A stretch of 64,000 nucleotides of DNA from Sporopachydermia quercuum (lineage: Eukaryota): the NCBI GenBank assembly GCA_001599295.1, contig BCGN01000009.1, positions 186,001-250,000 on the forward strand, read 5' to 3'. Positions 4,946 through 59,703 of the stretch are shown piece after piece. The notes under the pieces are model-generated. The model did no database searches. It saw only the letters and a program-made list of their open reading frames with translations, and was not told where the DNA came from. The translations under genes were made by a program, and so were the position numbers. Position 1 is the stretch's first letter. Each line of letters begins with the position of its first letter.

Positions 4946-5033
4946 TCCTCTGTAGCTCAGTTGGTAGAGCGTTCGGCTTTTAAGACATCAGAAGTCGACC
5001 GAAATGTCCAGGGTTCGAGCCCCTGCAGAGGAG
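4946..5033 (+). tRNA. tRNA-Lys(UUU) with a 15-nt intron (4983-4997)
   Basis: Acceptor stem TCCTCTG/CAGAGGA, A box TAGCTCAGTTGG, anticodon arm TTCGG-CT-TTT-A[intron]A-CCGAA, B box GGTTCGAGCCC, and a T-tract terminator at 5041-5049. Confidence 0.96.
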
Positions 5034-13102: not shown

Positions 13103-16100
13103 ATGCCGTCAGTAGATAATAACAGTATCAATATGGATCAAAATACTGAAGATGAACATAGCGATAAAATATCTAGTTCTACATTAAGAAGATCAACACG
13201 ACTGCTAGGCCAACAGAGAGAAACTGAAGCTCACAACGGTAAGTTCTAGATACAACAGTTCAATATGAGAATATGATAATACCAAGCATAATTATAAGTA
13301 TATCAAAGTAAGGATAAGATCTAATACTAACATTTTTTGATTATTTTAGAGCCTGAAGAGGAGAATGAAGAAATAGAAGTTGACGAAGAAGAAGCGGAAG
13401 AAGAATTAGAAAGCACAGGCGAAGCCGACTATGATAGTGAAGAAGATGACGATGTGACATATGGAGCTAAACGGAGGAAACAAACAAAAGGATCGAAAGC
13501 TAAGCGTGCGAGAAACCAATCAAAGAAATCTAAGAAGAAGGAGAGTTTGATAGTGCCTGAGAAAACTGAAAACTATCTTTTCGATGCTATCGCTGAAGGT
13601 GATGCTGCTTTCTCTGAATTAGCCGCCTCTTGGTTGGAAAACTACGAAGAAAATGAAATCGAATCTTTAAAAGATCTGCTTAATTTTGTACTGAAATGCT
13701 GTGGTTGTGAAGTTCTATTAGAAAGCCATGACATTGAGAATATTGATTCTGCAGCAGATACGTTAGCAGAGATACAGATTCTATTCAATAAGCAGGCTGT
13801 CTATGAATTCCCATTGTCATCTAAGCTTCCTGCAATGAAAGGTTTCAAAGATAGAGTAAGCGAATTCATTGATCAATTGATAATAGTTGCAGCCCAGAAG
13901 GGTACTCTTTATGATAATGCTTCATTTATGGAAAACGTTGAAACGTGGATTTCAACAATATCAACATCAAATTTAAGGCCTTTACGATACACATCTACCA
14001 TAATATTACTTAGGATTTTACTCAGCTGTTGTGAACAGCTGGCAAGGATTAATAAAGCAATGGAAAGGACCACGAAGCAACAGCAACAGCAATCAGCTAC
14101 AGCAAAGAAATCAAAGAAAATGCAACAACATTATGAAAAGCTTCTTCAGGAACAAGAGTCTCAAATTGAAACTTTGGATAACTTCGTTAGAGACATAATT
14201 GATACAACCTTCATTCATCGTTATAGAGATGTCGATCCGAAAATCAGAACAGAATGTATGAAATCATTGGGTAAACTAATGGATATTTATCCTGACTATT
14301 TTTTTGATGGTCAGTACTTAAGATACTTTGGTTGGGTACTTTCTGATCCTAATGCTGTTACAAGATTGGAGGTAGTAAGAAGCTTAGCAAGACTTTACAA
14401 GAAGCAAGAAATAGTAGTTGGGTTCAGACATTTCACTGAAAGGTTCAAATCACGAATGATTGAGATGGCTTTACTGGACTCTGATTCTAATGTTAGACTA
14501 CATATACTGAATGTATTGATCACGATCAGATCTCTAGGGTTTTTAGAGGACGAAGATTGTTTCAAAGTGCTACGTTTGCTGTTTGATGTTGATGCTAAAA
14601 TCAGAATAGAAGCAGCTAGATTTTTTGCTGACCATGTTAATGAACTATACGAAGAGCTGAAATCAAAACTAGGTAATTTTACGTCTGCCAAAGGTGCTGA
14701 AGGCATTTCTGATTTTATGTTGCAGTTCAAGCTTATTGGGGAAGTCTTGGCAATAGTTTCCAATGAAACTAACGAGGAAAACAATAATCAACGGACATTT
14801 GAATCTGTTTTGAAGGAGATCGATGATTTGAATGACCCAGCTGACAGCCAATTTCAACGGATCAGAGTACTGGCTCCTGCTTTATATTCAGCAGTTGGTA
14901 TAATGAAGAACTGTGAAGAGCTAGTTAAATATCTTCTACTAGATTTCACAAAATACGAGTCAGTTCGGCTGCCGAAACAAACAATGGCCATCCTTGAAAC
15001 AATCAAGCTTGAGCCTGAAGAAGAAAGCGTTTTAATCCATTTACTAGCAGGTATTTATCCTATTTATGTAAACGATGTTAGTTCCAATGCTACCAAGAAC
15101 ACGAACAATACGGCCCCGAAAGCTCTAGCTTCATCTGTTAACAATAGTGATACAGGTGACAAAAATGCAGAACCAGAAGCTGAAGATAGTGCTAAAACAA
15201 ATAATGAAGCAGACAATATGAATAGTACCACAAATCAATCTAAAGAGGATCTGGTGATGAATTTTCCTAGACTAGTATCAAAGTTCCTATCTTCGCAATC
15301 CTGTTTTGCTGGAATCCTTTCATTATTCTGCTCAATTGACTTACAGGAGTATCAAAACGCAGGTCGGGAAACAACTTTTGAAGAGATAATCACTAAGATC
15401 TTTCACGAGTTTATATCTCTATCAACCAACGCAGTCATCTCTCTGTCCAAAAGCTTTACCTCCTTTTTGAATAAATTAGTAGAATCAACCCTTTTCCCTG
15501 ACATCATTAACACCAAAGTTGATGAATATCTCAACACATTGATATCATCATTGAGAAGACAGATCCTTATTGACAATAATGGCAACATCAAAACTTTCGG
15601 CGGTATAGAAGATGTACCCTGTGATGAGACCACTGAGTTGTTAACAAAACTGTTGATTATGGGAACAGTAGTGGATATATCAAAGGGGCTGATATTTGAA
15701 GCTGTTGATGGAAAGCACGAGCAGAGCTCTGGTAATGAAACTACTGTTATAACACAATTGCTGAATGTATTGCAGATCATGTCTTCTGAAACGAGCAGCG
15801 AGGATGCTTCGAGATACAATGAGCTTGCTATTCAAACAGTACGACTTCTATTTTCGTATATAAGCTGGCTATTTGAGAATGCTATTCAGCATAAAATAAC
15901 TGAGAGCAAACTGAGAGTTTTGAAAGAATTCTCTTTCTCCAGTCTAATAACGGTTCTTACTCAGGTTATTGAAAGNACCATAGATTCTGCCTTGAAACTT
16001 GAAACGACAATGGTCTTATCAGATCTACTAACGAGTCAAGTTGTTACTGTCGCTAAAATAAAAGAGTCAGCCGAAGGTGAGAGTTTTGACCTTGATCTGC

Positions 16101-20206: not shown

Positions 20207-21653
20207 GCTGTACCCTTCGTTAAAACTTCGTCTGTATTGAGATTGAAGGATAAGTCATCAATCAAAGAGCTACCCTTGATTACACTGCTCCAAAGAAAAG
20301 TAAGAGGAAAAAGATATAATATAGACGACTATATGAGGTTTGCTTCTCACGAATAGAATCACAATCGCAATCGATCGATCAGCTTCAATCTCGTGATGCG
20401 TTTACAAACTCCCATTCGAAAAAAACAGCGTCGTGTTTGCTTCATGGCCGTCCGGATTGGTAATAATTTGATTCTGACATTTTGTGTTCGGACATTGTAC
20501 TTTATAGGACACTTGACTCGGACAAAATTTACACTATCTGCATTCTAACCAATAAAGGTTTCATCTCGGGACAATGTTGTATGTCCGACACAGATGATTA
20601 AATTCATCTGCGCGGCGAGCAGGAAATCGGAAAAGATAAAGGAAGAGAATAATCGGAGAACATAAAGTCACGCGATCTAAATAACCTCCGAAATTCTTTC
20701 AGCCGAGGTCACCATAATAAATGANAATGGAATCGGTAACTGAGCAAGCAAGCGTCACACACCATTGAACATGCTGTTTGGATGTTAAATACCCAAACAA
20801 TAAGTGATTTTTTTTTTTCATTCAGGGGTATTACCTTTACTTCACAATAGACATGATTATTATCGGATACTCAAAAAGTACTAGATCCCTTTCTTCCCTT
20901 TCTAACTGCACGCTCACATGCCAATTCTCATCACCTGGAACTTCGGTATATTTTTCAGGCTCTTTCCCAGGTAAGTATCATGTCAGTTCCCTATCTCTGA
21001 TCTATTAGAGGCATAATTATCTAGCTCCCACAAATAGACTAATATTTCTTTACATATAAACGTCCTATTCAAAGAAAGATCTCTCATTTTCAAGTTTTTC
21101 CCTCATTTTCCTTCCTATAAAAATGCCTTTATTGTTGTAATCTACGGTTTCTCCTTCAGTCTCTCCGACTTCCCCTAACGAGATGTGGAGAAAATGTATG
21201 TGATTCCTGTCAGTACATTTATTTTATACTTAAGATTACTCCAAAATCCTAAAATCCTAAAAACCTATAAATAATAGGAATCCCCGCGTTTGCTGTTGTA
21301 TCGAAGTGATGATTATCAACTGCTATTTATTATATACAATAGAAGAGCATCTAGCAAATATAAATAACTGCTGGAAATATGATGTATCTGGCTTTATTGT
21401 CCTGAGAAACATTTGTTGACAACAGAAGCATTTTGGTAATTTTATGTAAGTATCAGTAAATGTGCAATGAGGGTGAATAGGTGCTAGGTAGACCAATTGA
21501 TGGCTACACTGTATTGACAATCAGGTGGGCTCTATCCTCGTTGCATATAAAAGTATCAAGAGTTGATAAATCAGCAAGAAGCCGTATTTTCTAACTAGAT
21601 AGTATAGTTTACAACGGCGAGCAGAGTTAAGCTTATTGGAACATTCACTCACA

Positions 21654-38215: not shown

Positions 38216-39117
38216 TACAGAAACTTTCAACTAGTTTTTATGGTTGTGTCATGGAAAGGCGATTGGTAAGTGTGAGTGATCTGGTGAGGGAGGATAGATG
38301 CCATACACAAGTGGCTATATTCTGAGAGCGACCTGCCAGTACTTATGGCAAAACAACAAATAAAACCCAACTGTGCTTGAATCACGTAATAATGCCAACA
38401 TCGATCAAATATAACCTGTGAATATTTGGAATACACCATATAATCGATCTTCAAGTTGGTGATATCTTCCTACTTTTCTTATCTCATTAAAAGCTTACTA
38501 TACGTCCGAAAGGCTGTAGGTTCAAGTGTCCTGTAAGCAAGAAAAATCACATGATATAGTTCTTGCTCCTAGGACAAAATATGTTGTCCCATATTTATGT
38601 ATTTTCTCTTCTAGTAGTTAACTTTAGTCTGGACAGAATATTACCGTGCGAGGTTGCGGCCAGAGTTTACCAATGCGATTGGAAAATTTCAGTATTTCAC
38701 AATATCGTAGTGGTATCCTACTAGGGATAGAGTAATAGATTATTGAGTATATATATAATGATAATGATAAATATAAATATTTAAGATAGCGCTGAATAAT
38801 CATTTTCTCAGGAGATTTGTCAGTGAAAGTAGTTGGTGTCAGCAAGGAAAGGAGTGCTTTTAGCTGATACCGCAGTAACCATCCGAGTTTCAATTAAAGT
38901 GAGCTCTCGTTATTCACTCAAGAGCTTGATTAACGGCGGATAGATATATATTTCATCAAACAGCAGAAAACTAGCCTCTGAGCCAGTAGCTTAAAGGATT
39001 CTAACCGCTGAACGAAATACTTGCAAATTAGAGGATTAGCTCAAACAACGAGACGTACTATCGGAAAACATCTCCTGGAAGTTGACGTACACTAAGACTT
39101 CAATTGATCCGACAGTA

Positions 39118-40164
39118 ATGCTAAGAAGTTTGAACTGTGGAGCAGTTCCACGATGTGCTTCTCTACGTAAGTAAATGTATTGGGGGCATCAGAATACCCC
39201 CAGTTGTGACAAATAAGAGAAGCTAGGGATTGTATTTGATCATAATTCATATAATGACTATCATAACTAACCGTTCATAGTTCTCCGAAGAGGGATTTCC
39301 GGAACGGCTACTTTGCCAGTAGAAGCCACAACAGAACGAGTGACTACCGAAACAATAGAGATTCCAGTAAATCCTAGCGTCAGAGCAGCATTAGTTCTAT
39401 CCAGAAACCCCATCGTCACCCCTGATTTAACAGAATTTGAGGGAAAGTATTACTATTATCAGTCTGAATTAAGGAAAAGACTAATGTGGTCATTCCCTTA
39501 CTACTTTTATTTCAAGAAAGGTACAATGTCCGAAAGAGCATTTATGAAAGCTCAAAGAAAACAAATTCTAAGCAGACAGAAAAACATTTGGTACCCCAAA
39601 GGTTTACCAGAGGTCCGATTCAATCGTGAATTAAAACAGAAGCAGACCGTCATTATTCCTAAAGTTCAAAATAGTTTGACTGGTGAAGTTGACGCTGCAT
39701 TAACTCTCAATTCCAGAACAACTGAAGCTGATGAAACAAATGATACTAAATCTTTAGAAAGAAGGCTTTCGCGTACATTATATCTTGTGGTTAAAGACTC
39801 AGGATATGGAAATGGATGGAAACTGCCTTCTACAGAATTACATAGCAATGAAACACTTGACATTGCAGCTGAAAGAGGATTAAGAGATTTTGGTGGTGAT
39901 AAAATCAAAACTTGGACAGTTTCCAGCAAACCAGCAGCAGTAATGAAATATGATAAGAAGAAGAGACCTTTAGGATCATTCAATGTTGCTAAAGATCGAG
40001 TTGATATTTCCGAGTATATCATCAAATCACATATCATTGCTGGTTCATTCAGTAATGTTGATGAGAGGATAACTGATTATGCATGGCTTAGCAAAGAGGA
40101 ACTAGGAGAAGTGTTGGATCAGCAATACTTCAAGGATTTGGAATGTTTATTTTCAGATGTTTGA
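39118..40164 (+). CDS. MRPL17: Mitochondrial ribosomal protein mL46; exons 39118-39166, 39281-40164
   Basis: LSRNPIVT, FPYYFYFKKGT, SRTTEADETNDTKSLERRLSRTLYLVVK. A GTAAGT..AACTAAC..TAG intron adds the presequence MLRSLNCGAVPRCASLLLRRGISG. Confidence 0.93.
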
Positions 40165-45174: not shown

Positions 45175-48097
45175 CTATTGGTTGTATTTCTCATACAGTT
45201 TCTTTTGCTGTTCGAATAACTTTAAAAACTTCTTCTTCTGAGATTTGGAGACTGGATTGCCTTCTATATCGACAGAAGGAATTCCTTGATCATCAAACTC
45301 TTTATATTGACCCTTAATTTCTTCAGTTTGGAACATTTCCTCTGGTTTAATCTTGGCCTTCTCTTGAATTTGTCTCTCTTTCTTTAATTTTGCTTCAGCC
45401 AATTGAGCTTTCCTTACCTCATCTTGCTCATTTTGCTTTTTCTTAGCTTCGAGTTCAGACAGCAGCTTATCCTTCTCAGTTGCATCCAAAAACTTAATGG
45501 ATGCTGGTTCACTTGGTGTGCCATCACCAAGAGCAACACCGAGATTGAGAAGGTCAAAATCTCTTACTAAATCAGAAGCTGACAAGAAATCACTGTAAGG
45601 GGCTTTACCAATAGCTGATTTTCTGACCTTGTCTCTGTACCTAGCTAAGGCTTCAATATAAGGACGGGCAATTTCTTCTGCATCACCAGAACCGCTTTGT
45701 GATTGTTTTTCATCCGCCCAACCGAGTCCGTCTGGCCTAACAAGGAATCCCATAACTGAAAGAATGTGGTTTATCCATCTAGTAATCTTTTCTAGTACTT
45801 GTAATCCTGGATCATCCTGTTTGACAGCCAAATATGAGTAAACATGAGACACGAGGTTACTTAATTCTCTGAGAACTACAGGAGTGGAAAGGTTGTCACA
45901 GAATGCGTCATCAACGACTTTGACAGTAGCATCAAACTTATCAAACAATTCAGCTTCAGCTTTTGAAAACTTGAACTGAGCTTTTGCGTCCTCAACCTTT
46001 GTATCGTATAGTATAGACCTCATGTTGGTAAAGAACTTAGAGATTCTTGATTCGTATGATTTCACTTCTGTAAGTAGACTTTCTTTGAAATCCATACCGC
46101 TATGCCATTGTTGCAGAGCAAATGATAAACGCAACTGTCTAGCAGTGTATCTCTGTAAAGCTTCTTGAATAGTGATAAAATTCTTCAAACTCTTACTCAT
46201 TTTTTGTCCTTCAATATGAAGATGACCTGTATGGAGGAAATAGTTGACCCAGTCATGACATCCATGGAAAGCTTCTGATTGAGCTACTTCGTTATCATGA
46301 TGAGGGAATGCCAAATCAATTCCACCTGAATGGATATCCATATGGGCTCCCAAAACACAAGAAGCCATGACTGAGCATTCAATATGCCAACCAGGACGTC
46401 CTTCTCCCCATGGAGACTCCCAAGCAGGTTCACCAGGTTTACTCCCTTTCCATAGAGCAAAATCGTTCTTGGATTTCTTACCTGTCCCCAAAGTCAATGA
46501 GCCTTCACCCTCATTTATCAAATCTTCTTTTCCTTTATTCCAAGGTTGCAATTTAGCATAGTTGAAACCTTGTGATTCGAAAGCTCCAGTATCAAAATAC
46601 ACTGAACCATCAGTAGTGGCGTAGGCAAGCTTTTTATCAACTATGATCTTAACAAAATCAACAATCTCAGGCATATATTGAGAGACTCTTGTAACGACGT
46701 CTGGTGGTAAGACATTAAGAGCTTTCATGTCTTCGTTGAATTTGTTTTCCCAGTAGGCTGGCAATGATCTGAAAATGGCAGGATCTTTCACAGTAGAACT
46801 CAATTTGGCGTCCAAAACAGGGACCCAAATGTCCTTTATAGCTTCGTAGAAAGTTTCAGAATCAATACTATCAAGAGATGCAGTAGCTGATTCAATTCCC
46901 TTGGCGGCATCTCTGGCTGCTGCTAGATGCATACTAAACTTCGGATTCACCACAACTTGAGCAGCAGTATCAACACTAGTAGCCCAGGCTTCAAATGATG
47001 ATATATCCACTGGTTGAGGGACTCCATGAAGGGAAAGGTTCTTCGCAATATATTCTTTCCAAGCCTCAGTTACATCGTTCAGGATTTCTGATGTAACTGT
47101 TTTGTTTCCAGCTTTGAACTGGTCAAACAGGTACAGTTGACGTGCTCTAATGATGATTTTATCGTCGATATCAGTAACATTTTGAACGAATTTTACTTGA
47201 AATCCAAAATAATCCTGTAAAATTCTTCTGTTGATGTCGATTGATACGTAGTTCCGGGCATGGCCCATATGACTTGCATCGTATACAGTAGGACCACAAG
47301 AGTACCAGGTGACAAAGCCTTCTTCTCTTGGTTTGAACGGGACTTTTTCGTGAGAAAAAGTGTTGAAGAGCTTGAGTTTTTCCTGCGATGGCATTGCTGA
47401 GTAGCTGATTTGTCTTTTGCTTTGCAAAGAGGGCAAATGAGAAATCCTTCCTTTAAGATGGTTAGTAAATTAGTGACAAGAGTGTATGGTTGTAATGATA
47501 ATGAATAAGTAAGGATAGCCTTCCGATGTTTGTTGTAGTACCTAATAAAGTTCGCAGTTGATAAAATGAGTTGAATTCTCTTATTATTAAGTTCTGAATG
47601 ATTTGCAAAAGATCAAATATATATTGAGCCCAAATTAGTAATGCTACCAGTAACAAAATAACGGCAATCACCACAGTAAGACATATTGTTTTAGTGAGAG
47701 TAATTTCATGACGAGGTCTGAACATAAACGAAGTGAAAGAGCACGCCGTTTGATTGATTAGTTCTGGGATCTAATTGACAGCTTTGTTGTTGCATATTTC
47801 TTCCGCAAATATTCATGCTTTAATATATCTAGTGATATATAGAAATCTGCGTTCAGTTCTATTCTTCATTCATTCATTAATTCACTCATGGTGTTGTACA
47901 GCGTCATATTACTGTCAAACTGAAACTCTTTCTTGCCGTAAAGCACAGCCAAATTCCCTTACAATTCGTCTGATTTCTGCTCAGATTCACATTCTTGACA
48001 ACCATACTGTACGAACCATTACTATAACACAACCTCACTCGTAGCTGCTCATCGTTTATCAGAAGATGTACTTACTGAAGTTACGAAAACTTCTCAT
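45175..48097 (-). CDS. CRS1: Cysteinyl-tRNA synthetase; cytosolic form from ATG 47394, predicted mitochondrial form with exons 48097-48076 and 47450-45175
   Basis: WYSCGPTVYDASHMGHAR (HIGH), GRPGWHIECS, HSGGIDLAFPHHDNE and KMSKS. The upstream micro-exon is inferred from splice signals and is less certain than the enzyme call. Confidence 0.93.
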
Positions 48098-49084
48098 AAA
48101 TGACCAAATATAAGTAAAGGATCCAACGAAGGTTTTTATGTAAAAACTAAGCAATCAAGCTGTTGAACCTGTAACTTATAGATGACTGTTGTTGTAGCCT
48201 TTGATGTAGAATAAACGATGAAAAGGTAGCAAGGGAAGAAGGGGAAGATGATTGTGACCACTTTTGCTTCACCTTTGTAATTGTTGAGATGCGCTTTTGA
48301 AATTTTCATAGCGGAGACAAAAGGTATTGTAATTTCCGGTCAGTACACTATTNATTGATTCCAGAATGGTCACGTGTCATTTAGATTATTTCCGGAATTT
48401 ATAGTATAGAGGAGAAATTGATTGAAATAAAAGTATCTGAATTCCAAGCAAAAGAAGTTAACCAAGGAGAGAAAACAAGTTGATATGATTAGCACTGTGT
48501 TTTAGAACTATTCCTTAACGTTTTATTGAAATGAAACGTTCCTTTCTATGATATTACTTGTTCTGATCTTCAGAGAATTCTACTAGGATGAAAAATTTGG
48601 AGATAATACTTGGGATCTCAGTTCATGACTTGATCTCTGTCTTGAGATGTGGAAACCAGTTTTTTTTTTTTTGAGTATATATGGCTTTGCATTATAAATC
48701 TTTGAAACCGAATACGAACATTCAAACATTTAAGCTACATTTATAATAGCTTTCTCTCAATAGTACTTTGAAAAGTCATGGACTTATACACAACCCCTTC
48801 GCCATCTATGTCGTATAAGAGGAATATCTGCAGACATACGCCCTAAGCTTCAGACATAATCTCCGGCATTTCTGTCCCATCCCTTTCTTCTTATCGCCTT
48901 TCTCTTCTTTTGATCATTCTCACTTTTTATTCTTACTCAATTGATCATCAAAATACCAGGTCCACCTTTACTGAATCACTGGGAACCTGCCGCTGAATCA
49001 ATTGGGACTGCGGAACACACCAGTGGAGTGACTGGTTAATTGCTATCCGTGCGTTGTTCGTATTCTGCCTATTCTCATCCTCAA

Positions 49085-52000
49085 ATGTCCCAAATTACAA
49101 AACTATCTATCCAAGGCATTCGGTCATTTGATCCAGAGCGTAGGGAAACTATAGCTTTTGGTGTTCCATTAACTTTGATAGTCGGTCAAAATGGATCCGG
49201 GAAAACTGTATGTTAGACCTTAAAGTTTTCTTTCTCCTCGATTTTTTTCTTCTTTATTGTTCTCTGTATTTGGTTACTATTCTCATACTAACCACACTAT
49301 TAGACANTTATTGAATGCTTGAAATACTCGACTACTGGAGACTTACCACCGAATTCAAAAGGAGGAGCTTTTGTTCATGATCCGAAAATTACAGGCGATA
49401 AAGATGTGAAAGCTCAAGTTAAACTTGCTTTCAAGAACATTAATGGTGTGCAGATGATTTGCTCTCGCTCTATGCAGCTTACTATGAAGAAGACAACACA
49501 GACATTCAAAACTCTGGAGGGTCAACTCCTAGCAATGAACCACGGAGAGCGTACGACTGTTAGTAGCAGAATCTCCGAATTAGATGCTCAAATTCCGTTA
49601 TATCTCGGAGTATCTAAAGCTGTGCTTGACTATGTCATCTTCTGCCATCAGGAAGATAGTCTATGGCCATTAGCAGAGCCTTCTGTTCTGAAAAAGAGAT
49701 TTGATGAAATATTTGAAGCTTTGAAGTTCACGAAAGCTCTGGAAAGTATCAAAAACATCCGGAAAGAGCTATCAACAGATTTGAAGCTCTTAGGTCAGTC
49801 AGTAGGACACTGTAAGATAGAGAAAGACAGAGCAAAGAAAACCGAGGAGAAGAAACAACAACTGGAAGAGGAAATATACAAATTTGAAGAGGAAATAGCG
49901 GATACCAAAGTTGCGTTAGACGAAGTAACAGAAGAATCCCGGAAACTGTTTGAAAGTCATCAGTACTTTCGAGACACGCTTACTAAGCTAGAATCATTTC
50001 AACATCGGAAGCAAATGTTGCAAGACCAAGTGGATAAACTCACGTTTACAATTAAGCTTTTAACTGAGCCTGAAGGAGCTTTAGAACGGAAATTAGCTAA
50101 TTTTGGATCAGAATTAAGCGAACGGAAGGCCCAAGTTGAGACGGGTCAATCGGAAATATTGCAGCTGACACAAGCGATAAAAGATCTCCGAAATGAATAC
50201 AATAAAGAGATTGGGAATCTAGAATCCACAAAGGCCAAAATAGACGGGTTCGTTGACTTACAAAAACGCCAAATTGGGCTGATAACGGAAAAGATAGCGG
50301 AGTTGAAGTTGGACATTGAGGAATCGGAAATAGTAAAAGCCCGTAATAACGGANATGATGACAATGATAATTATGAAAACCGGAGAAGATTGGTACAAAG
50401 TTTCCGCGATCAAATAGCTAAACTAAATGATCGAATAAATATGGAAAGAAGTCAGCAGTTGAGCCGAACAACCGAAAGCTTAAACTCAAAACGGGAGCAA
50501 TTGCGCAAGATACAAGCAGAAAAAGACGGAAAGTTCCAAAGGAGGGAATTACTTTTAGAGCAGATTTCCGCTTTCGACTCCGAATTACAGTCCTTAAAAG
50601 GGGAAACGGAAACTATAACGGTAGACGAGAATGATTTAGTATATTTAGAAACCGAATTAGAGGATTTGAAAGGAAAAGCGAAAAAGATTGATGAGGAGTT
50701 TGATTCTGCAGGATTATCGACTAAAATCACCCAATTAGGTAAAGAGATTCGAAAATTAGAGAATGAAGCGGAGGATATCGGAACGGAGTTTGCTGAAAGT
50801 AGTAGAGTAACGGAAGCAAGAGTCAAAATAGATTTTATCACCTCCGAACTTAACCTAAAACAGAAAAATGTTTCCTCTCTAGTTGATAAAAACTCCATCA
50901 AGTTCTGCGAAATTACCAAAATACCCCTGAAAGTAGAAACCTGTTCAGAACACCTTCACAATATTCGTTCCGAATGGGAGCAAAAGCTTGAAAACCTACG
51001 CCAATCATACAAAAGCGCTAGCAATGAAGCTTCCGATATCACCCGAGATTATCAATCCACAGTAAACAAACTTTCCGAATTTCAAACCGAACGGGAAAAA
51101 CTCGGGAAGAAGATCCTTAGCTTGCTTGATTCGGAATCAGAATACGAATCTCGGCTTGAAGAATCGGGAGAAAACTTCCGATTGGCTACACAGAATAAAG
51201 AGAATGCCTCATTTACTAAAGCTTATTTCACGTTCTCTATTGATTGTGCCGAGAGCAATAGTAAATGCTTACTATGTAATCGGAAATTTACTTCAGAAGC
51301 GGAAGTGAATAAATTTATATCCGAAATCCGGGGGAAGATCGAACGAGTTGCGGTCACTCCAGAGGAATTAGAAGCGGAATGGAATGAGATTCGAGAAGAG
51401 AAAGAAAGTTTGGTTGATTTGAAGCCTGATATTTCCCATTTTCGGCAATTAGAGCGGACCCTTATTCCTGATTTGGAAAGAGCCATTGTTGATCTGAACT
51501 CAAAGCGAGAATTCTCCGGTACTTTTGCCGAACAGTTATCTAAACAGGTGAATGATGCTAAATTACATGTTGAGGCAATTGAGACCCTGATTAAACCTAT
51601 TCAGGCAATTGATGGGCTAAATAGGGAAATAAATAACTTAAGACGGCAATTGGAACATTTACAAGCAGACGAAAACGGGAAAAGCAACGGGAACTCTAAC
51701 CAAGTTAGGTCGTTGTCGGAACTTCAAGACGCATTAACGGAAAAGAATAATCAGATTAAAAATAAACGACAACTGAGTCTCCAATTAGCCCAACAAAAGG
51801 AGAATCTGCAGAGACAGGTCCACAATATGTCTGCTCAAATTAAGGATAAAGAGTTAGTAATAAGCGAGTTACGTCACAGAATATCTCAAAAGAACCAACT
51901 TAGTGAAACCGTGGCGAGACAGAAGGCCCAGAGAGGAAATTTGCAGACACAAATTGGCGTTTTGGCCGAGGAAATTGAATCATTACTGCCTGACTTGGAA

Positions 52001-53176
52001 AACCTAGAAGTAGAAGTCGAAGAGGCGCAACAAGACTTAGAATTACTTGAAACGGAAAAGAATACTCAATTGGAAACTCTCAGAACGATTCTAAATTCCG
52101 TGGATCAAATAGAATCGGAAGTTCAATCGTTTGACAAAGCGGCTATCGATTCCGCTATTGCTTCAATTTCAGTCAAAACGGATAATATGCAAGCTGTCAT
52201 ATCCGAAAAGGAATCAGAAATAGAATCCATCCGAGAAGTCATCCATACTTCGGAGCAAGAAATAGCCGACTTCACTGGCGTCGAACGGAATATTCGAGAT
52301 AACTTAGAATTAATCAAACTTCGGAAAGAACTTTCTGAAATCCAATCCGAAATCCGGAAACTCGATATTCGAAATGCAGAAGCTCAAAAACTCCGGTACG
52401 AAGAAGAATCTTCCCGTCTACAAGAATTGTATTCCTCATTAACAAAGAAACATGCCGGAAAGCAGGGAGAAGTAAAACAATTGGATGATCAACTAAGAAA
52501 CGTTATTGCTGAGCTGGAAAACGAGTTTTCTAACGCTAATAAACGTTACCAACAAGAATACATCAAGCTTACTACTAAAACCAAAGCATTTGATGATTTA
52601 GCAAAATATAGTAAAGCTCTGGATAAAGCAATCATGCAGTTCCATTCTATGAAAATGAAGGAAATCAATGATATCGTTGATGAGCTATGGAAAAAGACAT
52701 ATTCCGGTACTGATGTTGATACTATTCTTATTAGATCTGATGCTAATAATGCTAATAGTAACAGTACTAGTACAACCAGCAATAGATCGTATAATTATAG
52801 AGTCTGTATGGTCAAACAAGATGTCGAGCTTGATATGAGAGGAAGATGCTCAGCTGGGCAGAAAGTTCTAGCATCTATTATAATTCGGTTGGCGCTAGCG
52901 GAATGCTTTGGCATCAATTGCGGTATGATAGCATTAGATGAACCGACGACTAATTTGGATGCCGAGAACATAGAATCTTTGGCTAAGAGTTTGGGAGCGA
53001 TCATTGAATTGAGACAAGCGCAGAAAAACTTCCAGTTGATAGTTATTACCCACGATGAACATTTTCTGTCTTTTATGAATGCAGCAGCGTATACGGATCA
53101 TTTCTACAGGGTCAGTCGTAATGAGAGACAAAAGAGTGAGATTGAGTTAGTAGCTATTTCGAAGGTAAGTGCTTGA
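49085..53176 (+). CDS. RAD50: MRX complex SMC-like ATPase Rad50; exons 49085-49207, 49304-53176
   Basis: [15 protein letters not shown] start; Walker [10 protein letters not shown] split by a GTATGT..TACTAAC..TAG intron; Q-loop [12 protein letters not shown]; zinc hook CLLC; signature CSAGQ; Walker B/D-loop [12 protein letters not shown]-loop ITHD. Confidence 0.97.
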
Positions 53177-55021
53177 GTTGAAAGATTATCGGTAGCAAGA
53201 GATGAATGGAGAATTGTGAAGATTGAATCTGAGTAGATGGATCAGGAAGACTGAGGGCTCACCGGACTGGAAGAACATTTGGTGCTGGAGAAGCAAGCAC
53301 TTTTCAAGATATTACATTGGTTCTAGAGGTTGGATATTAGTTCCGAAATTTGATCTTTTCGGGTTTAAATACCTTTCTTTTACTTTCTACTGCGGTTAGG
53401 TTTGTCATAGGGAAGGAGTTGTTGCTTGTATCTAGGAATAATAATGTGATTTTATCTAAATTATAAATGCGCCAATTCTAGATTTTTCTTGTAAATTTGA
53501 ATGTGTTTGTTCATGAAATAACTGACTCTCAGTAGTAATGTCTCAGGTTTGCTAATATAATTCCTGCAGGTTCTGCCGCAGAAAATTCTTTCTGAACTTA
53601 GAGTTGAGATTAGTGCATATTGCTGCTTACTGAAGGTACTTATTTCACCTCAAGTTTTGATCCATCTTATAAGCTTATCATCGGAGAATACTAAATAGTC
53701 TTTAAATAAATCCTACTTTGGACCAAAGTCTCATCTATACTAACACTTCCCATCGAAATCAATAAATATACTTCCTGCATCTATCCTGTGTCTATCCTGC
53801 ATAATCATGATCACAAACCCTAAATTAGAATTGTTCTTATTCCCTTTCCCAAACAGGCAAAACCTAACACATATAGTTCTTCTTCTGGAAGATTGTCTCT
53901 CCTGACAACTAAATCTTTCATGCAATCTCTTTAGAAATACCAACCAAGATGTCAAAATCTGCCCTCAAAAATGGATTGAACTACTGCGTTACTGATCGCA
54001 TTTTTGGCTGATCTTCCGCTGGTTTACTATTTTTCACCGTGAAGTTTGTAAATCTCTTTTGGTTCAATCCATATACCGAAGCATGTGATTCTGCAAGTTT
54101 GTGTAGGAGCCCTGTTTGTTTACAGTTGCAACTTTGAATTTGCTCTTGTTCTATTGTTTATTGCTATTGCTTTTGTACTTGAAGTAGTGTTTAATGAAAC
54201 GAATTGATATGATAACTAATGTATAGAGTAGACTGGAGACGATCAGATATAATTGTTTGAATTCAGTATTTTTGTTGTATTACTGAATTTATAAATATTA
54301 GTATAGGAAGAAGGAAACTGATGGTATGTATAGTGATTTGATTCCTTGTATGGTATGGACCGACAAGTGCTATCAGTTTATTGCTATTGAAAAGATGTCG
54401 TTGTTGTATACAAGAGCTGGCTACTTATCAGTTGATTGTGAATAATCGTTGGTACATTGAATTGTATGGATGGTCAATGGACCATTGATTCAGATCAAGC
54501 ATACTACATGGCCTAATAACCTACTCACAATATCTTGCGATGAAGCAATCGGAAAAAAATCATTTTGTAACAATTCTATAAGTTTAATTACTTTTGGATA
54601 AATTGGTGAATTGTAGATAAAAGATTNATTTGTCTTTTTATATCCAATTTTTCTTTTATACTTCCCTTCTCTTAGCCATTGGAAGAGAGAAGCGGCCGCT
54701 TTCTGTATCAAGTGACCATCAACTGATGAGCAAACGTTAACAGCTTTTATTGTACTGCTATTAGTGATACTGGAAAGATAGCAGAAAAAGAGAAGAAGAT
54801 CTAGCAGCAAGAACAATAGCAGTAAGAATAAAAGTGAGAGAATTTGCTGATTGTTACAATTTTCAAATGCTTTTTTTTGCCTGATTGATGGGTCCGACTG
54901 GAAGTTGTAAATGCTCCTATGTCAATTAGTTATTTCTGAGTATTCTTATACTAACGTTTCACCAGCTAAGTAGAGAAAATAATCAGAAGCATAGTAGTAG
55001 CTCAGATCCATTGAAATAAAG

Positions 55022-57724
55022 ATGAAGCTCAAAATACCGAAATTCGGGAAACAGAACTCGCATTCTCATGATGGGCATTCCGAAAAACAAAAACGGAACA
55101 TTCCAGACTCCAGTACTGAACCCAAAACTTCGGAAAAGTCGAAACAAGTAGTCAAAGAAACCCATCCAGTTGCGTCACCTACTCAAGCTTCTAGTCCCTC
55201 AGTCGACACATTATCAGAAGAGGTATCAGCTTTAGAATTTACGGAATCGGAAGAAAGCTCCGATGGAAACTCTACTCGGTTGGAAATGGATTCTGAAACT
55301 GAGACTGAAACAGAAATAGAAAATGACAGAATCAGTGGCGGGAGAAAATTGAATACTCCAGATGGAGCAGCTCTTGATTCTGAGTTATTGTCACCAATCA
55401 TTAGTATCAAGACCAATAAAAGCAGCAATATTGATGATCTAGAACGAATAAAGGCGGAGTCTATTATTGGTGGGTCTATTTATTCCGGCTCTGGAAACGA
55501 AATCCAAGATAATTACGAATTAGATACACCTGCGGGTTTCACTGATTCTAAGATCATTTCCCGTCCCAATGATGATACAACGGAAGCATTGGAGCCCGCG
55601 GAACCTTCTAAAAAGGTTTTTGAAAGCTCCGTTCCTAGTAAATCTAAACATACGGGAACTAAAAGCCAACGAATCTTCCAATTCTCTTTACCCTTGGCGC
55701 CGTTATCAAGTATTTCACCTTCCATTCCCACAATTCGCAGTTTTTCTAATTTGGGTAAATTTTTTGGTAATTCGGAAGACGAGCAGATCCGAGAAACAAT
55801 AAAACAGAAGCTCAAGCGCCAAGAATCAATGACATCTTTGGAAGAAGAACTTCTCTACTCAAATGTTCGGAATCAAGATAACGGAAGATTTCGGGCCGTC
55901 AAGAAGGCTTTCCTGTCCAAGCTTGAGTCATTACAAGCTATCCCACTGCCTACCATCGAGCTCTCTAGCTCTGATGCTCTGCGCATAAAAGAAACCACCA
56001 TCGCAGAACCATTTCCAGGACTATCCGGTGATATAGTGATTCTTGGCGGATACCGAGGTTCCATTCTTCGAAATAAAAGTACAGGCAAGCGGGTTTGGAT
56101 CCCTTTGAAAGCCGGTTTGAATCTACGAAAAATTGACCTGTTTGTTGGTTTGAAGGATGATGATGAATATGAAATGGAAGATTATATCTATCCATCAGGA
56201 ATGTTGACCCATATTGGACCAGTGGATATATCGAAGAGGTTGATCCGAAAGTTGGAGAAAAACGGGAAGACTCGGGTTCGGGATTTCGGGTATGATTGGA
56301 GGTTGTCCTGTGATATTAATAGTGAGAAGCTTATTAAATTCTTAAAAAATCTTCCGTGTAATAAACGGAGTGAAGGCAATAATGGTAGCAAACCTAAGGG
56401 AGCTATAGTAATTGCTCATAGTATGGGAGGACTAGTTGCACATCATGCAGTTCAAACAAATCCCGAACTATTCCGAGGTATCATTTATGTCGGTTCGCCA
56501 TCAAGCTGTCCTAATATATTAGGNCCATTAAGAGATGGTGATAGTATTATGCTGTCAACTAAGATACTTACCCCAGAGGTTAACTTTTCAATGAGAAGCT
56601 CTTTTGTATTCTTACCACTTGATGGGAAGTGTTTTGTTGATAGAAAGACAGGGAAAAGGTATGACATAGATTTTTTTGATGTTAAGAATTGGATTGAGTA
56701 TGGATTGAGTCCAGTTGTTGATATGAAGAGGAAAGAGAAGTTATTAAGGAGTGAAAAGGAAAGCGAAAAGCAGAAAATTAATAATGGTGATGCTGGTGAT
56801 AGTATAGCTAGTAGTATAGCTAGTACTGCGACAGTATCCACTGTTGTTTCTGACGGCAATCCTGATTCTAACGGCAGTGTTACTGTTACTGTTGATGCCA
56901 CTTCAAGTACCTTAGAAGCATCTAGTTTTAATAGAACTAATGGTAATATGACTGCTACCACTACTACTAGTACCACTACCACTTCTACTACTGTTTCTAC
57001 TGCCCCTACAATTACGACTAGTTCTCCAAAACAACATAATCGAACTTCTTCCGCCACTGTGGCTCCTCCTATTAGTACATCTTCATCATCAGATCATAGA
57101 AAGCTTCTCAACTTTGCATCTCGCAAGGGATCTTTGTCTTCTAATAATTCATCATCATCCATTTCTGGTTGTACTAAATCAACAAAACAATCAGAATCCT
57201 TACTGCAACAGTCGACATCTTTCATTAAATCATTGAACAATAATATCAGCATCACCAACATCAGTATTAATATACCAAATCCTCTAGAAGTAGACAGAGA
57301 GATTCCTTACGATGAAGCTGTCGAGTATCTTGATAGAACTCTTAAAAGAACAAAGAAGTTCTCACAGGAATTACGATNTAATGAAGAGAGAAAGGATCAA
57401 TATCCACCCATGGCTGTTATCTATGGGAATGATGTGCCAACATTAAGAGGAGCAAGAATAGATGGAATCCAGGGGTTATATGATGGTGATTATTCGGACT
57501 TTATATTCGCTCCGGGAGATGGTGTTGTGTATCATAGAACATTAATGCCTGAAGGTGCTGGTTTTGGCAAATGGGATGGAAACGGAGAGAATGGCAGTAA
57601 TCCAAGGGGTAAGATAGTTGCTAAAGTAGCAAGTAAAGAAGGACATATTGGATTATTGACGGATATAAGTGCTTTCCAAGTGGCTATTTCCAAACTGTTG
57701 GCAGCTGAAAAGTATGTTAAGTAA
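55022..57724 (+). CDS. Putative alpha/beta-hydrolase (LCAT/lipase-like), YJR098C-like
   Basis: IVILGGYRGSILR, RVWIP, FGYDWRLS, nucleophile elbow AHSMGG, GDGVV and GHIGLL, plus S/T-rich insertions. Convergent with JJJ3, like the S. cerevisiae YJR097W/YJR098C pair. Confidence 0.8.
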   Translation: MKLKIPKFGKQNSHSHDGHSEKQKRNIPDSSTEPKTSEKSKQVVKETHPVASPTQASSPSVDTLSEEVSALEFTESEESSDGNSTRLEMDSETETETEIENDRISGGRKLNTPDGAALDSELLSPIISIKTNKSSNIDDLERIKAESIIGGSIYSGSGNEIQDNYELDTPAGFTDSKIISRPNDDTTEALEPAEPSKKVFESSVPSKSKHTGTKSQRIFQFSLPLAPLSSISPSIPTIRSFSNLGKFFGNSEDEQIRETIKQKLKRQESMTSLEEELLYSNVRNQDNGRFRAVKKAFLSKLESLQAIPLPTIELSSSDALRIKETTIAEPFPGLSGDIVILGGYRGSILRNKSTGKRVWIPLKAGLNLRKIDLFVGLKDDDEYEMEDYIYPSGMLTHIGPVDISKRLIRKLEKNGKTRVRDFGYDWRLSCDINSEKLIKFLKNLPCNKRSEGNNGSKPKGAIVIAHSMGGLVAHHAVQTNPELFRGIIYVGSPSSCPNILXPLRDGDSIMLSTKILTPEVNFSMRSSFVFLPLDGKCFVDRKTGKRYDIDFFDVKNWIEYGLSPVVDMKRKEKLLRSEKESEKQKINNGDAGDSIASSIASTATVSTVVSDGNPDSNGSVTVTVDATSSTLEASSFNRTNGNMTATTTTSTTTTSTTVSTAPTITTSSPKQHNRTSSATVAPPISTSSSSDHRKLLNFASRKGSLSSNNSSSSISGCTKSTKQSESLLQQSTSFIKSLNNNISITNISINIPNPLEVDREIPYDEAVEYLDRTLKRTKKFSQELRXNEERKDQYPPMAVIYGNDVPTLRGARIDGIQGLYDGDYSDFIFAPGDGVVYHRTLMPEGAGFGKWDGNGENGSNPRGKIVAKVASKEGHIGLLTDISAFQVAISKLLAAEKYVK

Positions 57725-59703
57725 TGATCGCGAGAAATGTTATCAGCATTACTTTTGATATTGATAATGGTGTCTAGGTTTTTTTTGAGTGAAGGTGAAA
57801 ACTCATCGTGTTTACAAACTCATAGTGGTATCGGCGCAAGCTGATGTTCGGAGGAAAGTTCCTTCAATTCTCTGATGAACGTTTTCTGCAGCTGAAATCA
57901 TCATAAAACCTACAATGGGAAGATTAGNATATAACGACGAAGAATCCATTGAATTGGAAATGTGCATTACTTTTGCTACTTTTGCCGCTGCCGGAATTGG
58001 TATTATAACCAAGCATCGGAAGTTTCTGTAGATGCTGTCAAATTGAACTGCAATAGCTGGAAGGAGAAAGTNTCCTTTTCGAAGTTTAGGTATATATATA
58101 TACTGGGATAGTTACTCGCAGGGGTTTTCCCTTCCATGTTTTTTCGGGGCAAATTAATATTTGTAAGATAATATGATAATATGGGCAATATAAATAATGC
58201 CACGATATATTCATGAATTCACAATTCACAGTTAATAGTTATTAATAATTAATAATTAATATGGGAACTGCTTCTTCTATTTCTCCTTATTGATTTTCAT
58301 AAAAACAATAGTGTAAGTAGAGAAATATTAGAGGTAGTTTTGGTGTTGGTGTTAGTTATTGGATATAAATAAGTTGAGAGAAATGGTGATTGGTATTGAA
58401 TGTGTATGTAGGTATAGAAGAAGAACAGGTAAATGTTCTCATTGGAATACACCACATGTTACTATGAAAGCAAGAATCAGAAGGTTGGAAGTAGGTTTTT
58501 ATGATAAAGCTGCAAATTATGATAAATCAGACTCCTTATAATACCACGCAATAGAGCCGTACTAAATCAGGAACATCAGCAGCGTAGCGTACCATACGAT
58601 GATGCATCATAGAAACATTATATCATACTTCAACCATGCTTCGTTATCTCATGGTAAAGCAAGCTATAATAACCAAACAGTCAGGTCAATTGCAATTCCT
58701 AGAAATTACAGAGCATTTCCTATTCATTTAAAACTGCATCATTTAGGACTATCTATCTATCTGCCCTTTGGTTCTGCATTATCTTCACATCTCGCTTTCA
58801 TTTACGTAGTAACACTCACTTTATCTCCAATCGCTTTCATCATTAATAGTATCAATATCATCAATACCATTTATAGCAATACTGCTATCGTGGATAATGA
58901 CATATCATACATATGAAAAGAAAACAAGCAACAAAAAGAACGTACCATTGACAGTGATACTGTTACTACCATTATGATACGGCTGAAATAATAGTCCTGT
59001 TGATACTGACACCACTGATGGTAATTCTGCTACTGGACTGGCAATTTGATAACTTTCTCCAGGTGCTTCCTTCATTCACTTTCATATACTCATGTCTTCT
59101 TGTTAGTTATCAAACACATCAATTCGCTCATACTCATGGTGATGCTACAACCGAGTTCGCTGACATGGGATTCACAAGACAACAATATGAGTGAAAATTC
59201 AGACAGTTTATGGCAAAAAGAAAACCAGCAGGCTCCTTATCTCTAAAAGCTCTGGTAGGCTGTATGAACCCCACCAAAAGAAGTCTTACTGTAGAGCTAC
59301 CACTGCTTTATGCTTACTTTTTGAAACAGTACATCTACTTCGTTTAAACTATATCATAAACTAGTTAGAAGATATCATAATTTATTATCATCCAGTAAAT
59401 AAGAAGCAGCACCTTATTTGTTTCGTCCTGTTGGATTTAACAGTATAGGAAGCCCGTCATCAACTCTTATGTAGGAACACCAAAGCAATATACTGGAATC
59501 CTATATTTCACCAGCTTCCATGAATAACTAATGCAAGGTTGCTAAGAGTGAAGGCTCAATATCCCGAGATTATCTCAATTATTTGATCTATGACCTTATG
59601 TCTTATGACCTGTTGTTTGGATCTATGATCTCTTTAATAGCAATAAGAGTGCAGTTAATGTTTCTTCGTTTCTAGTTTCTTGACGCACAAATCCTCCTAA
59701 CTA

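Follow-up and report, generated by a model that had tools for sequence, protein, structure and literature searches.

RAD50, gene 2 and their motif-rich tracts

The window analysed in this study is a stretch of 64,000 nucleotides from Sporopachydermia quercuum (contig BCGN01000009.1, positions 186,001 to 250,000), budding-yeast DNA with a GC content of ~37% across its length. Our subject is a four-base word, CGGA on either strand (written CGGA or TCCG below), that is about fivefold over-represented in the RAD50 gene and in the start of the gene that follows it. Positions count from the first base of the window, and gene identities come from Pfam and homology searches.

RAD50 lies on the plus strand. 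Its first exon (49087-49209) runs for 41 codons from the ATG at 49087 through the Walker A sequence GSGKT and ends right before a GTATGT. The 94-nt intron (49210-49303) has the form GTATGT ... TACTAAC ... TAG and directly follows the Walker A codons, and the GKTT-IECLKY motif resumes in frame in exon 2 (49304-53176), which encodes the remainder of the N-terminal head, the coiled coil with its CxxC zinc hook, and the C-terminal ATPase head. Because there is an N at 49307, the listing of open reading frames (ORFs) began the gene late, with an ORF at 49454-53176. The protein matches SMC_N, AAA_23 and SbcC_Walker_B in Pfam and has homologues at up to ~41% identity. Exon 1 contains one TCCG and no CGGA; the intron has no sites and one CpG, and at 94 nt it is too short to be informative.

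A spacer of 1845 bp (53177-55021), in which we found no tRNA or Rfam family, separates RAD50 from a second plus-strand gene (55022-57724, gene 2), encoding a YJR098C-like alpha/beta-hydrolase of 900 amino acids. Its Pfam matches, to LCAT and a hydrolase, are weak and fall within residues 403-499, the homologues named YJR098C cover ~40% of the protein, and an NCBIfam search of gene 2 returned no match. An imperfect run of 14 ACT trinucleotides lies at 56951-56992 in this gene, and short unrelated contigs from three sequencing runs match there.

The word is concentrated in two tracts, or fields, and counts in 1-kb bins across the window are conspicuous at 49-53 kb and at 55-56 kb and nowhere else. 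Field 1 (49304-52606) has 35 CGGA and 23 TCCG, with 52 CGG and 40 CCG in all, around a consensus of WWCGGAA. These 58 sites amount to 17.6/kb, compared with 2.73/kb in the 51.7 kb outside the region (P=1.4e-27), and shuffles that preserve the protein predict ~14-16. Over the whole RAD50 ORF the density is 16.1 per kb, in gene 2 it is 9.6, and in the 18 other ORFs it is 0-7.4; the ratio of observed to expected CpG is 1.09 in RAD50 and 0.19-0.74 in every other one of the 20 ORFs. The first-pass annotation, made by eye from the sequence, had counted about 26 CGG/CCG sites in 50041-50820 against 1 in a segment of IRR1 (13801-14580), and our counts agree with it, at 27 and 1 for CGG plus CCG and 18 and 1 for CGGA plus TCCG.

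We mapped the extent of field 1 in 300-bp bins, comparing observed sites with the expectation from the protein. The field does occupy the 49750-52470 interval originally assigned to it, but it is wider, reaching from the start of exon 2 to ~52.6 kb with a lull at 51405-52005 (4 sites, 2.3 expected). It had also been described as thinning out over the conserved ATPase head, and this holds for one end of the protein only: the last 570 bp of RAD50 (52607-53176), encoding the C-terminal ATPase head, are not enriched (3 sites, 1.8 expected), whereas the bin covering the conserved N-terminal head is (5 sites, 0.9 expected).

Field 2, which was absent from the first-pass annotation, covers the first 1.5 kb of gene 2 (55022-56521) with 12 CGGA and 9 TCCG, or 14.0/kb (P=2.8e-9), and it shares the codon signature of field 1 that is described below: 20/25 arginine codons are CGN, and 9/19 serine, threonine or alanine codons in front of GA end in G or C. 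The remainder of gene 2 (56522-57724) is background-like in both respects (3/19 and 2/6). The spacer between the fields has 6 sites (3.3/kb), which is the background level and is improbable under a fivefold rate (P=5.4e-6), and 3 sites occur in the 1979 bp that follow gene 2. The divergent intergenic region between CRS1 and RAD50 is mildly raised overall, with 9 sites in 1692 bp (P=0.046), and contains two copies of ATTTCCGG ~60 bp apart at 48325-48400.

A strand-symmetric word in native coding sequence

We compared the RAD50 ORF (49454-53176) with two null models that keep the protein, each with 1000 shuffles. In one, synonymous codons were drawn from the 18 other ORFs, and in the other RAD50's own codons were permuted. 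The ORF contains 37 CGGA, where the first model gives 9.5+-2.9 and the second 21.8+-3.7, and none of the 1000 permutations reached 37; for TCCG, 23 are present, the models give 5.7+-2.3 and 13.0+-2.8, and 1 permutation in 1000 reached 23. The remaining CpG-containing 4-mers are flat (observed/expected CGAT 9/11.2, TCGA 15/16.8, ACGT 5/6.3, ACGA 13/12.8, CGCG 1/1.7, TCGC 1/5.6), so CpG as such is not in excess. In six control genes the site counts match the expectation or fall short of it (sites/expected IRR1 3/8.0, PSY2 12/16.4, NRD1 5/8.1, CRS1 4/6.8, DOA10 18/20.2, FOL1 9/8.9), which makes the null conservative. The claim that amino-acid needs do not account for the motif is thus upheld, and codon usage, CpG content and G+C at third codon positions (GC3) are excluded as explanations as well. 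Two outcomes that the first-pass annotation had named as damaging to its proposal, loss of the enrichment once CpG and GC3 are controlled for and equal enrichment of other CpG 4-mers, did not occur.

All three codon phases are enriched. In 49319-52606 the counts by phase are 11/18/6 for CGGA, with 1.7/5.1/2.2 expected, and 13/8/2 for TCCG, with 3.5/1.4/0.3 expected, so that on the RAD50 coding strand each orientation is enriched about fourfold. This confirms the earlier observation that the motif occurs on both strands and in every phase, and with both orientations and all frames enriched, the proposal that a signal at the level of DNA is overlaid on working coding sequence also stands. The correlation between the excess of each 4-mer and that of its reverse complement is r=0.48 in RAD50, above that of every other one of the 14 coding segments compared (controls 0.07-0.39), and removal of words containing CGG or CCG lowers it to 0.20. 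Words resembling precursors of the motif are depleted relative to the protein-preserving null (observed/expected CTGA 17/29.4, CTG 39/57.3, CAG 53/67.7, AGG 39/55.5).

When the 100 CGG/CCG sites of RAD50 are oriented to read CGG, their flanks are A/T-rich and the base at +3 is A in 61 of them (37/57 on the plus strand and 24/43 on the minus strand), compared with 34% of 437 background sites. At +6 there is no preference for A (A 25, C 19, G 21, T 35). The most frequent oriented 7-mers are AACGGAA (9), ATCGGAA (8), TTCGGAG (5) and TTCGGAA (4), each of which is expected well under once from the rest of the window. With both strands counted, enrichment increases with the length of the motif, from 2.9x for CGG to 4.1x for CGGA, 5.5x for WWCGGAW and 6.4x for WWCGGAA. 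Where the base after CGG is not A, the enrichment is 1.9x, and 0.96x relative to RAD50's own codon usage. An origin of the sites in internal repeats was rejected; a repeat search found only short chance repeats.

The motif is visible in codon choice. In RAD50, 38/59 serine, threonine and alanine codons in front of GA end in G or C, compared with 36/247 elsewhere in the window (odds ratio (OR) 10.6, p=8e-14), and only 6/59 end in T, the base favoured in the background (123/247). Arginine in front of A is encoded by CGN in 20/27 cases, compared with 31/150 (OR 11, p=1e-7). Within their families the codons CGG (26% in RAD50, 7% in the background), CGA (19%, 7%), ACG (25%, 13%), GCG (22%, 8%) and GGG (28%, 8%) are raised, but some other rare codons are not (GGC 8% and 19%, CCC 9% and 15%), and the two-fold families (Glu, Lys, Gln, Asn, Asp) match the background, with equal shares of GAG, AAG, AAC, GAC and CAG. 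Read as changes, these choices follow several routes (T>G, T>C, A>G, A>C and the two-step AGA>CGG), all leading to the one word. The outcome is partial, with ~40-65% of eligible contexts carrying the motif.

The protein itself is also skewed toward the word. Compared with 120 orthologues, RAD50 here has 18.7 Ser-Glu dipeptides per 1000 residues where the others have 7.8+-2.4 (z=4.6), Thr-Glu, Ile-Arg, Phe-Arg and Arg-Lys are also raised (z 2.4-3.2), and its potential to encode the motif ranks 1/121. Conserved proline codons of the N-terminal head have also been recruited into motif sites, and for this reason we do not retain the earlier suggestion that the field is limited to sequence that tolerates change.

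Apart from the motif, both tracts are native coding sequence typical of their host. At motif-neutral codon positions, meaning synonymous choices unable to make CpG, CGG or CCG, chi2/df is 1.25 in field 1 and 1.0 in field 2, and 1.24-3.08 in other genes; GC3 at such positions is 0.358 and 0.328, and 0.307-0.445 in other genes. A tract of GC-biased gene conversion was rejected on these grounds, since there is no general synonymous rise in G or C and motif-neutral GC3 is within the range of other genes. A CpG island or an escape from CpG depletion was rejected because only CGG/CCG words are raised, other CpG contexts being at or below expectation.

Sharing of the field by RAD50 orthologues was a check that the first-pass annotation had proposed. 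Of 75 metagenome RAD50 loci fetched we examined 28, those with long matches and several of them near-duplicates, and none of these 28 loci of other organisms has a motif excess (observed/expected 0.23-1.28, compared with 3.17 here); the AT-rich, yeast-like loci among them have 1.6-2.9 sites/kb, compared with 15.8 here. The excess appears from these comparisons to be lineage-specific. Together with the 120 orthologues, the 28 loci rule out a conserved property of RAD50 or a by-product of coiled-coil composition.

The surrounding window

CRS1, RAD50 and the YJR098C-like gene (45175-57724) are also neighbours in Wickerhamomyces, Lachancea, Vanderwaltozyma, Tetrapisispora and Zygosaccharomyces, judging synteny by shared contigs and adjacent locus tags in database records, and since several yeasts have this neighbourhood in common we consider the block ancestral. 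The closest database relatives are distant (~40-41% identity for RAD50, ~54-56% for CRS1), and for both genes the matches are spread in the same flat manner over Wickerhamomyces, Nadsonia, Cyberlindnera, Lipomyces and others, indicating an isolated and poorly sampled lineage. Two independent DNA runs of the same organism are identical to the window over 47000-59000, with no polymorphism there; two further sequencing runs gave short, dissimilar pieces only, with no relative among them.

The other genes that we identified in the window are DOA10-like (5.4-10.6 kb, minus), IRR1/SCC3 (13.8-16.5 kb, plus), PSY2 (22.9-27.0 kb, minus), FOL1 (32.4-35.0 kb, plus), NRD1 (42.0-43.9 kb, minus), CRS1 itself (45.2-47.4 kb, minus) and RPA49 (61.4-62.3 kb, plus). 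Nine CGGA/TCCG sites, three of them of the TCGGACA type, form a small promoter-like cluster in intergenic DNA at 20301-20900, with an ArfGAP-like gene (minus) on one side and a short-chain dehydrogenase gene (plus) on the other, which shows that ordinary clusters of CGGA-type sites exist in the non-coding DNA of this yeast. Six sites cluster at 38901-39300, across a likely intron and the start of exon 2 of a gene whose main ORF is 39271-40164. An Rfam scan of the window found two tRNAs only. For the tRNA at 4946-5033, ARAGORN reports a four-base anticodon (taag) that is unassignable, Rfam rates it an ordinary tRNA at 59 bits, and it probably carries an intron. Isolated N bases occur at 29 positions (e.g. 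3343, 49307, 50354, 56524), about one per 2 kb and without concentration in the motif fields, and may be ambiguous or heterozygous calls.

Possible origins of the fields

We propose that a lineage-specific force acting on double-stranded DNA would have written dozens of extra CGG half-sites, as WWCGGAA on either strand, into 49304-52606 and 55022-56521. It may be selection for monomeric binding sites arrayed within the genes, which would be built from free synonymous positions plus tolerated amino-acid changes and read by a CGG-recognising DNA-binding protein, for which the fungal Zn2Cys6 zinc-cluster family would be the obvious class, with an effect on the chromatin or transcription of the RAD50/YJR098C-like neighbourhood. 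That the fields are a selected array of half-sites for a putative zinc-cluster-type protein is a possible explanation that we advance tentatively. The first-pass annotation had also suggested a protein-binding array, for silencing, chromosome organisation or replication, roles that our results leave as conjecture. We favour selection because many mutational routes converge on one word, because the specificity extends to ~7 bp on both strands, and because the non-coding flanks are untouched; several substitution routes leading to one word look more like selection than like a single mutational mechanism.

An array is further favoured because multi-copy CGGA sites are documented for a zinc-cluster protein. 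According to PMC3639059, Rgt1, a zinc-cluster repressor of HXT promoters, recognises 5'-CGGANNA-3' and binds multiple copies synergistically. Rgt1 sites resemble the RAD50 field in having a CGG core followed by A and in being dispersed as numerous copies, facing either way, across hundreds of bases and with no fixed dimer spacing, and the promoter-like cluster at 20.3-20.9 kb is a further likeness in this window. The A at +3 of the Rgt1 site is present here (61/100), but the A at +6 is not preferred (25/100), and unlike Rgt1 promoter sites the ~80 sites lie inside two ORFs, over 3.3 and 1.5 kb. Dimer sites of the Gal4, Put3 and Ppr1 type (CGG-Nx-CCG) have a fixed spacing that the fields lack. 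Transcription-factor sites in exons, called duons or exonic enhancers, are described as constraining codon choice in PMC4745165 and PMC4897603, for example, and are similar to the fields in that codons and a signal at the DNA level occupy common bases, with a bias in synonymous choice and even in residues as the result. The known examples are individual sites or short footprints from animals and plants, whereas RAD50 has a kilobase-scale field of one word in a yeast, with the dipeptide content shifted. Our search of open-access literature turned up no account of any CGG or CGGA field in a yeast ORF.

The first-pass annotation had connected the motif with CDEIII. The CDEIII core of point centromeres (TTCCGAA) is read by the zinc-cluster protein Cep3, and a point centromere is a single non-coding site of ~125 bp with an AT-rich CDEII. 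WWCGGAA does include TTCGGAA/TTCCGAA, with 4 copies in the field and 2 in the other 55 kb. However, the sites here are numerous and dispersed within ORFs of 39-41% GC, we found no single CDEIII with a CDEII of ~80 bp and >85% AT in non-coding DNA, and the lineage is distant from the yeasts known to use CBF3. We take the connection to be a resemblance only.

Several observations weigh against a selected array. The gaps between sites are Poisson-like (mean 33 bp, coefficient of variation 1.0), no spacing of CGG/CCG dimers is preferred at 1-40 bp, inverted or everted, except for 8 overlapping CCGG, and the information content of the motif is just ~8 bits. The adjoining spacer could accommodate a binding array at less cost, and yet it is at background; confinement to exons is strange if the function resides purely in DNA. 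The 3' limit of the field in RAD50 is only weakly established, since the counts are small (P=0.049 under a fivefold rate), and field 2 is the weaker of the two, since the whole of gene 2 has 26 sites with 14.1+-3.5 expected when its protein is taken as given. The evidence comes from one genome, seen in two identical runs, and no close relative was found.

The main rival is a mutational, repair or biased-conversion drive directed at the motif, which in certain tracts would turn near-cognate C[A/T]G(A) into C[C/G]G(A) and leave a product without function. We consider this a somewhat doubtful possibility, although much of the evidence is what such a drive would produce: strand symmetry with a Poisson-like scatter of sites, depletion of the likely precursors CTGA, CTG, CAG and AGG, partial conversion as for a weak ongoing pressure, and tract-like limits inside genes. 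It has to explain, however, how at least four substitution types plus two-step arginine changes all go toward one word, why site density stays at or close to background in the spacer, in the intergenic DNA upstream and in the 3' parts of both genes, and why enrichment climbs to a 7-bp consensus, longer than usual mutational contexts. We know of no eukaryotic motif-directed activity of this kind, and our literature searches were not aimed at one. Very-short-patch mismatch repair in E. coli and enteric bacteria inflates its own target word, and the likeness is that one word is over-represented strand-symmetrically at the cost of its one-step neighbours, but that process is genome-wide and makes one transition type, whereas the pattern here is confined to two tracts and involves several substitution types. 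A local domain of mutational bias, which the first-pass annotation had offered as its alternative, is disfavoured by the background-level spacer and by motif-neutral codons that are typical of the host. Ancestry from a donor with other sequence habits, through introgression, horizontal transfer or mosaic conversion, could also leave sharp, tract-like boundaries inside genes. It is scarcely credible here, given that motif-neutral codons and GC3 are host-typical in both tracts, that two-fold families match the background, that the CRS1-RAD50-YJR098C synteny is ancestral, and that RAD50 and CRS1 share the same flat pattern of distant matches.

Two further rivals place the cause after transcription. 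Translation could be tuned by minor-tRNA codons (CGG, CGA, ACG, TCG, GCG, GGG) and slow codon pairs that keep RAD50 output low or pace the folding of the coiled coil, with the DNA word as a by-product. The raised shares of CGG, CGA, ACG, GCG and GGG and the confinement of the effect to coding sequence agree with this, and PMC5100601 discusses regulation through rare codons and the matching tRNAs in yeast. We nevertheless find it unlikely, for TCCG is equally enriched, including at TCC|G junctions and in codon-spanning frames, the shift sits in contexts that complete the word rather than across all uses of a codon, and CGG without a following A shows no excess over RAD50's own usage. Moreover, GGC and CCC are not raised, the signature ends in the middle of gene 2, and it is absent from the 28 RAD50 loci examined. 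Very unlikely, in our view, is a signal in RNA, in which UCCG and CGGA in the mRNA would base-pair together, or with an RNA acting in trans, or be bound by an RNA-binding protein. The presence of the word and its reverse complement in one transcript, the exon-limited distribution and a coarse folding run (z=-1.7, with the native stability matched by 2/30 permuted sequences) are in its favour, but a denser folding run gave z=-0.8 against both nulls, CGGA-UCCG pairing was seen in 15/66 window-instances (0.227) compared with 0.167+-0.065 after permutation, and no Rfam family occurs in the region. On the folding and pairing results we rejected RNA self-pairing. About a fifth of the probability we leave to causes beyond those listed here.

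If the fields are selected, as in the array of half-sites that we favour, no clearer example of an extended code at the DNA level over protein-coding sequence would yet exist in a yeast, and it is one strong enough to alter the dipeptide content of a conserved repair protein. If a repair or conversion drive is the true cause, it would be a new, locally targeted mutational process in eukaryotes. A bolder proposal, which we regard as quite unlikely, is that the two fields around a motif-poor core of 2.4 kb (52.6-55.0 kb) are a new chromosomal landmark, a kilobase-scale array in the synonymous sites of essential-pathway genes that would be read by a CGG-binding protein to tether, pair, insulate or otherwise organise the locus. 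Were fields of this kind to turn up roughly once on each chromosome, they could be the marks of an unconventional element, centromere-proximal or for pairing, in an isolated lineage of budding yeast with undescribed chromosome elements. The signature, which is word-specific, strand-symmetric, frame-independent, limited to tracts and otherwise native, provides a clean search image for such fields genome-wide and across yeasts.

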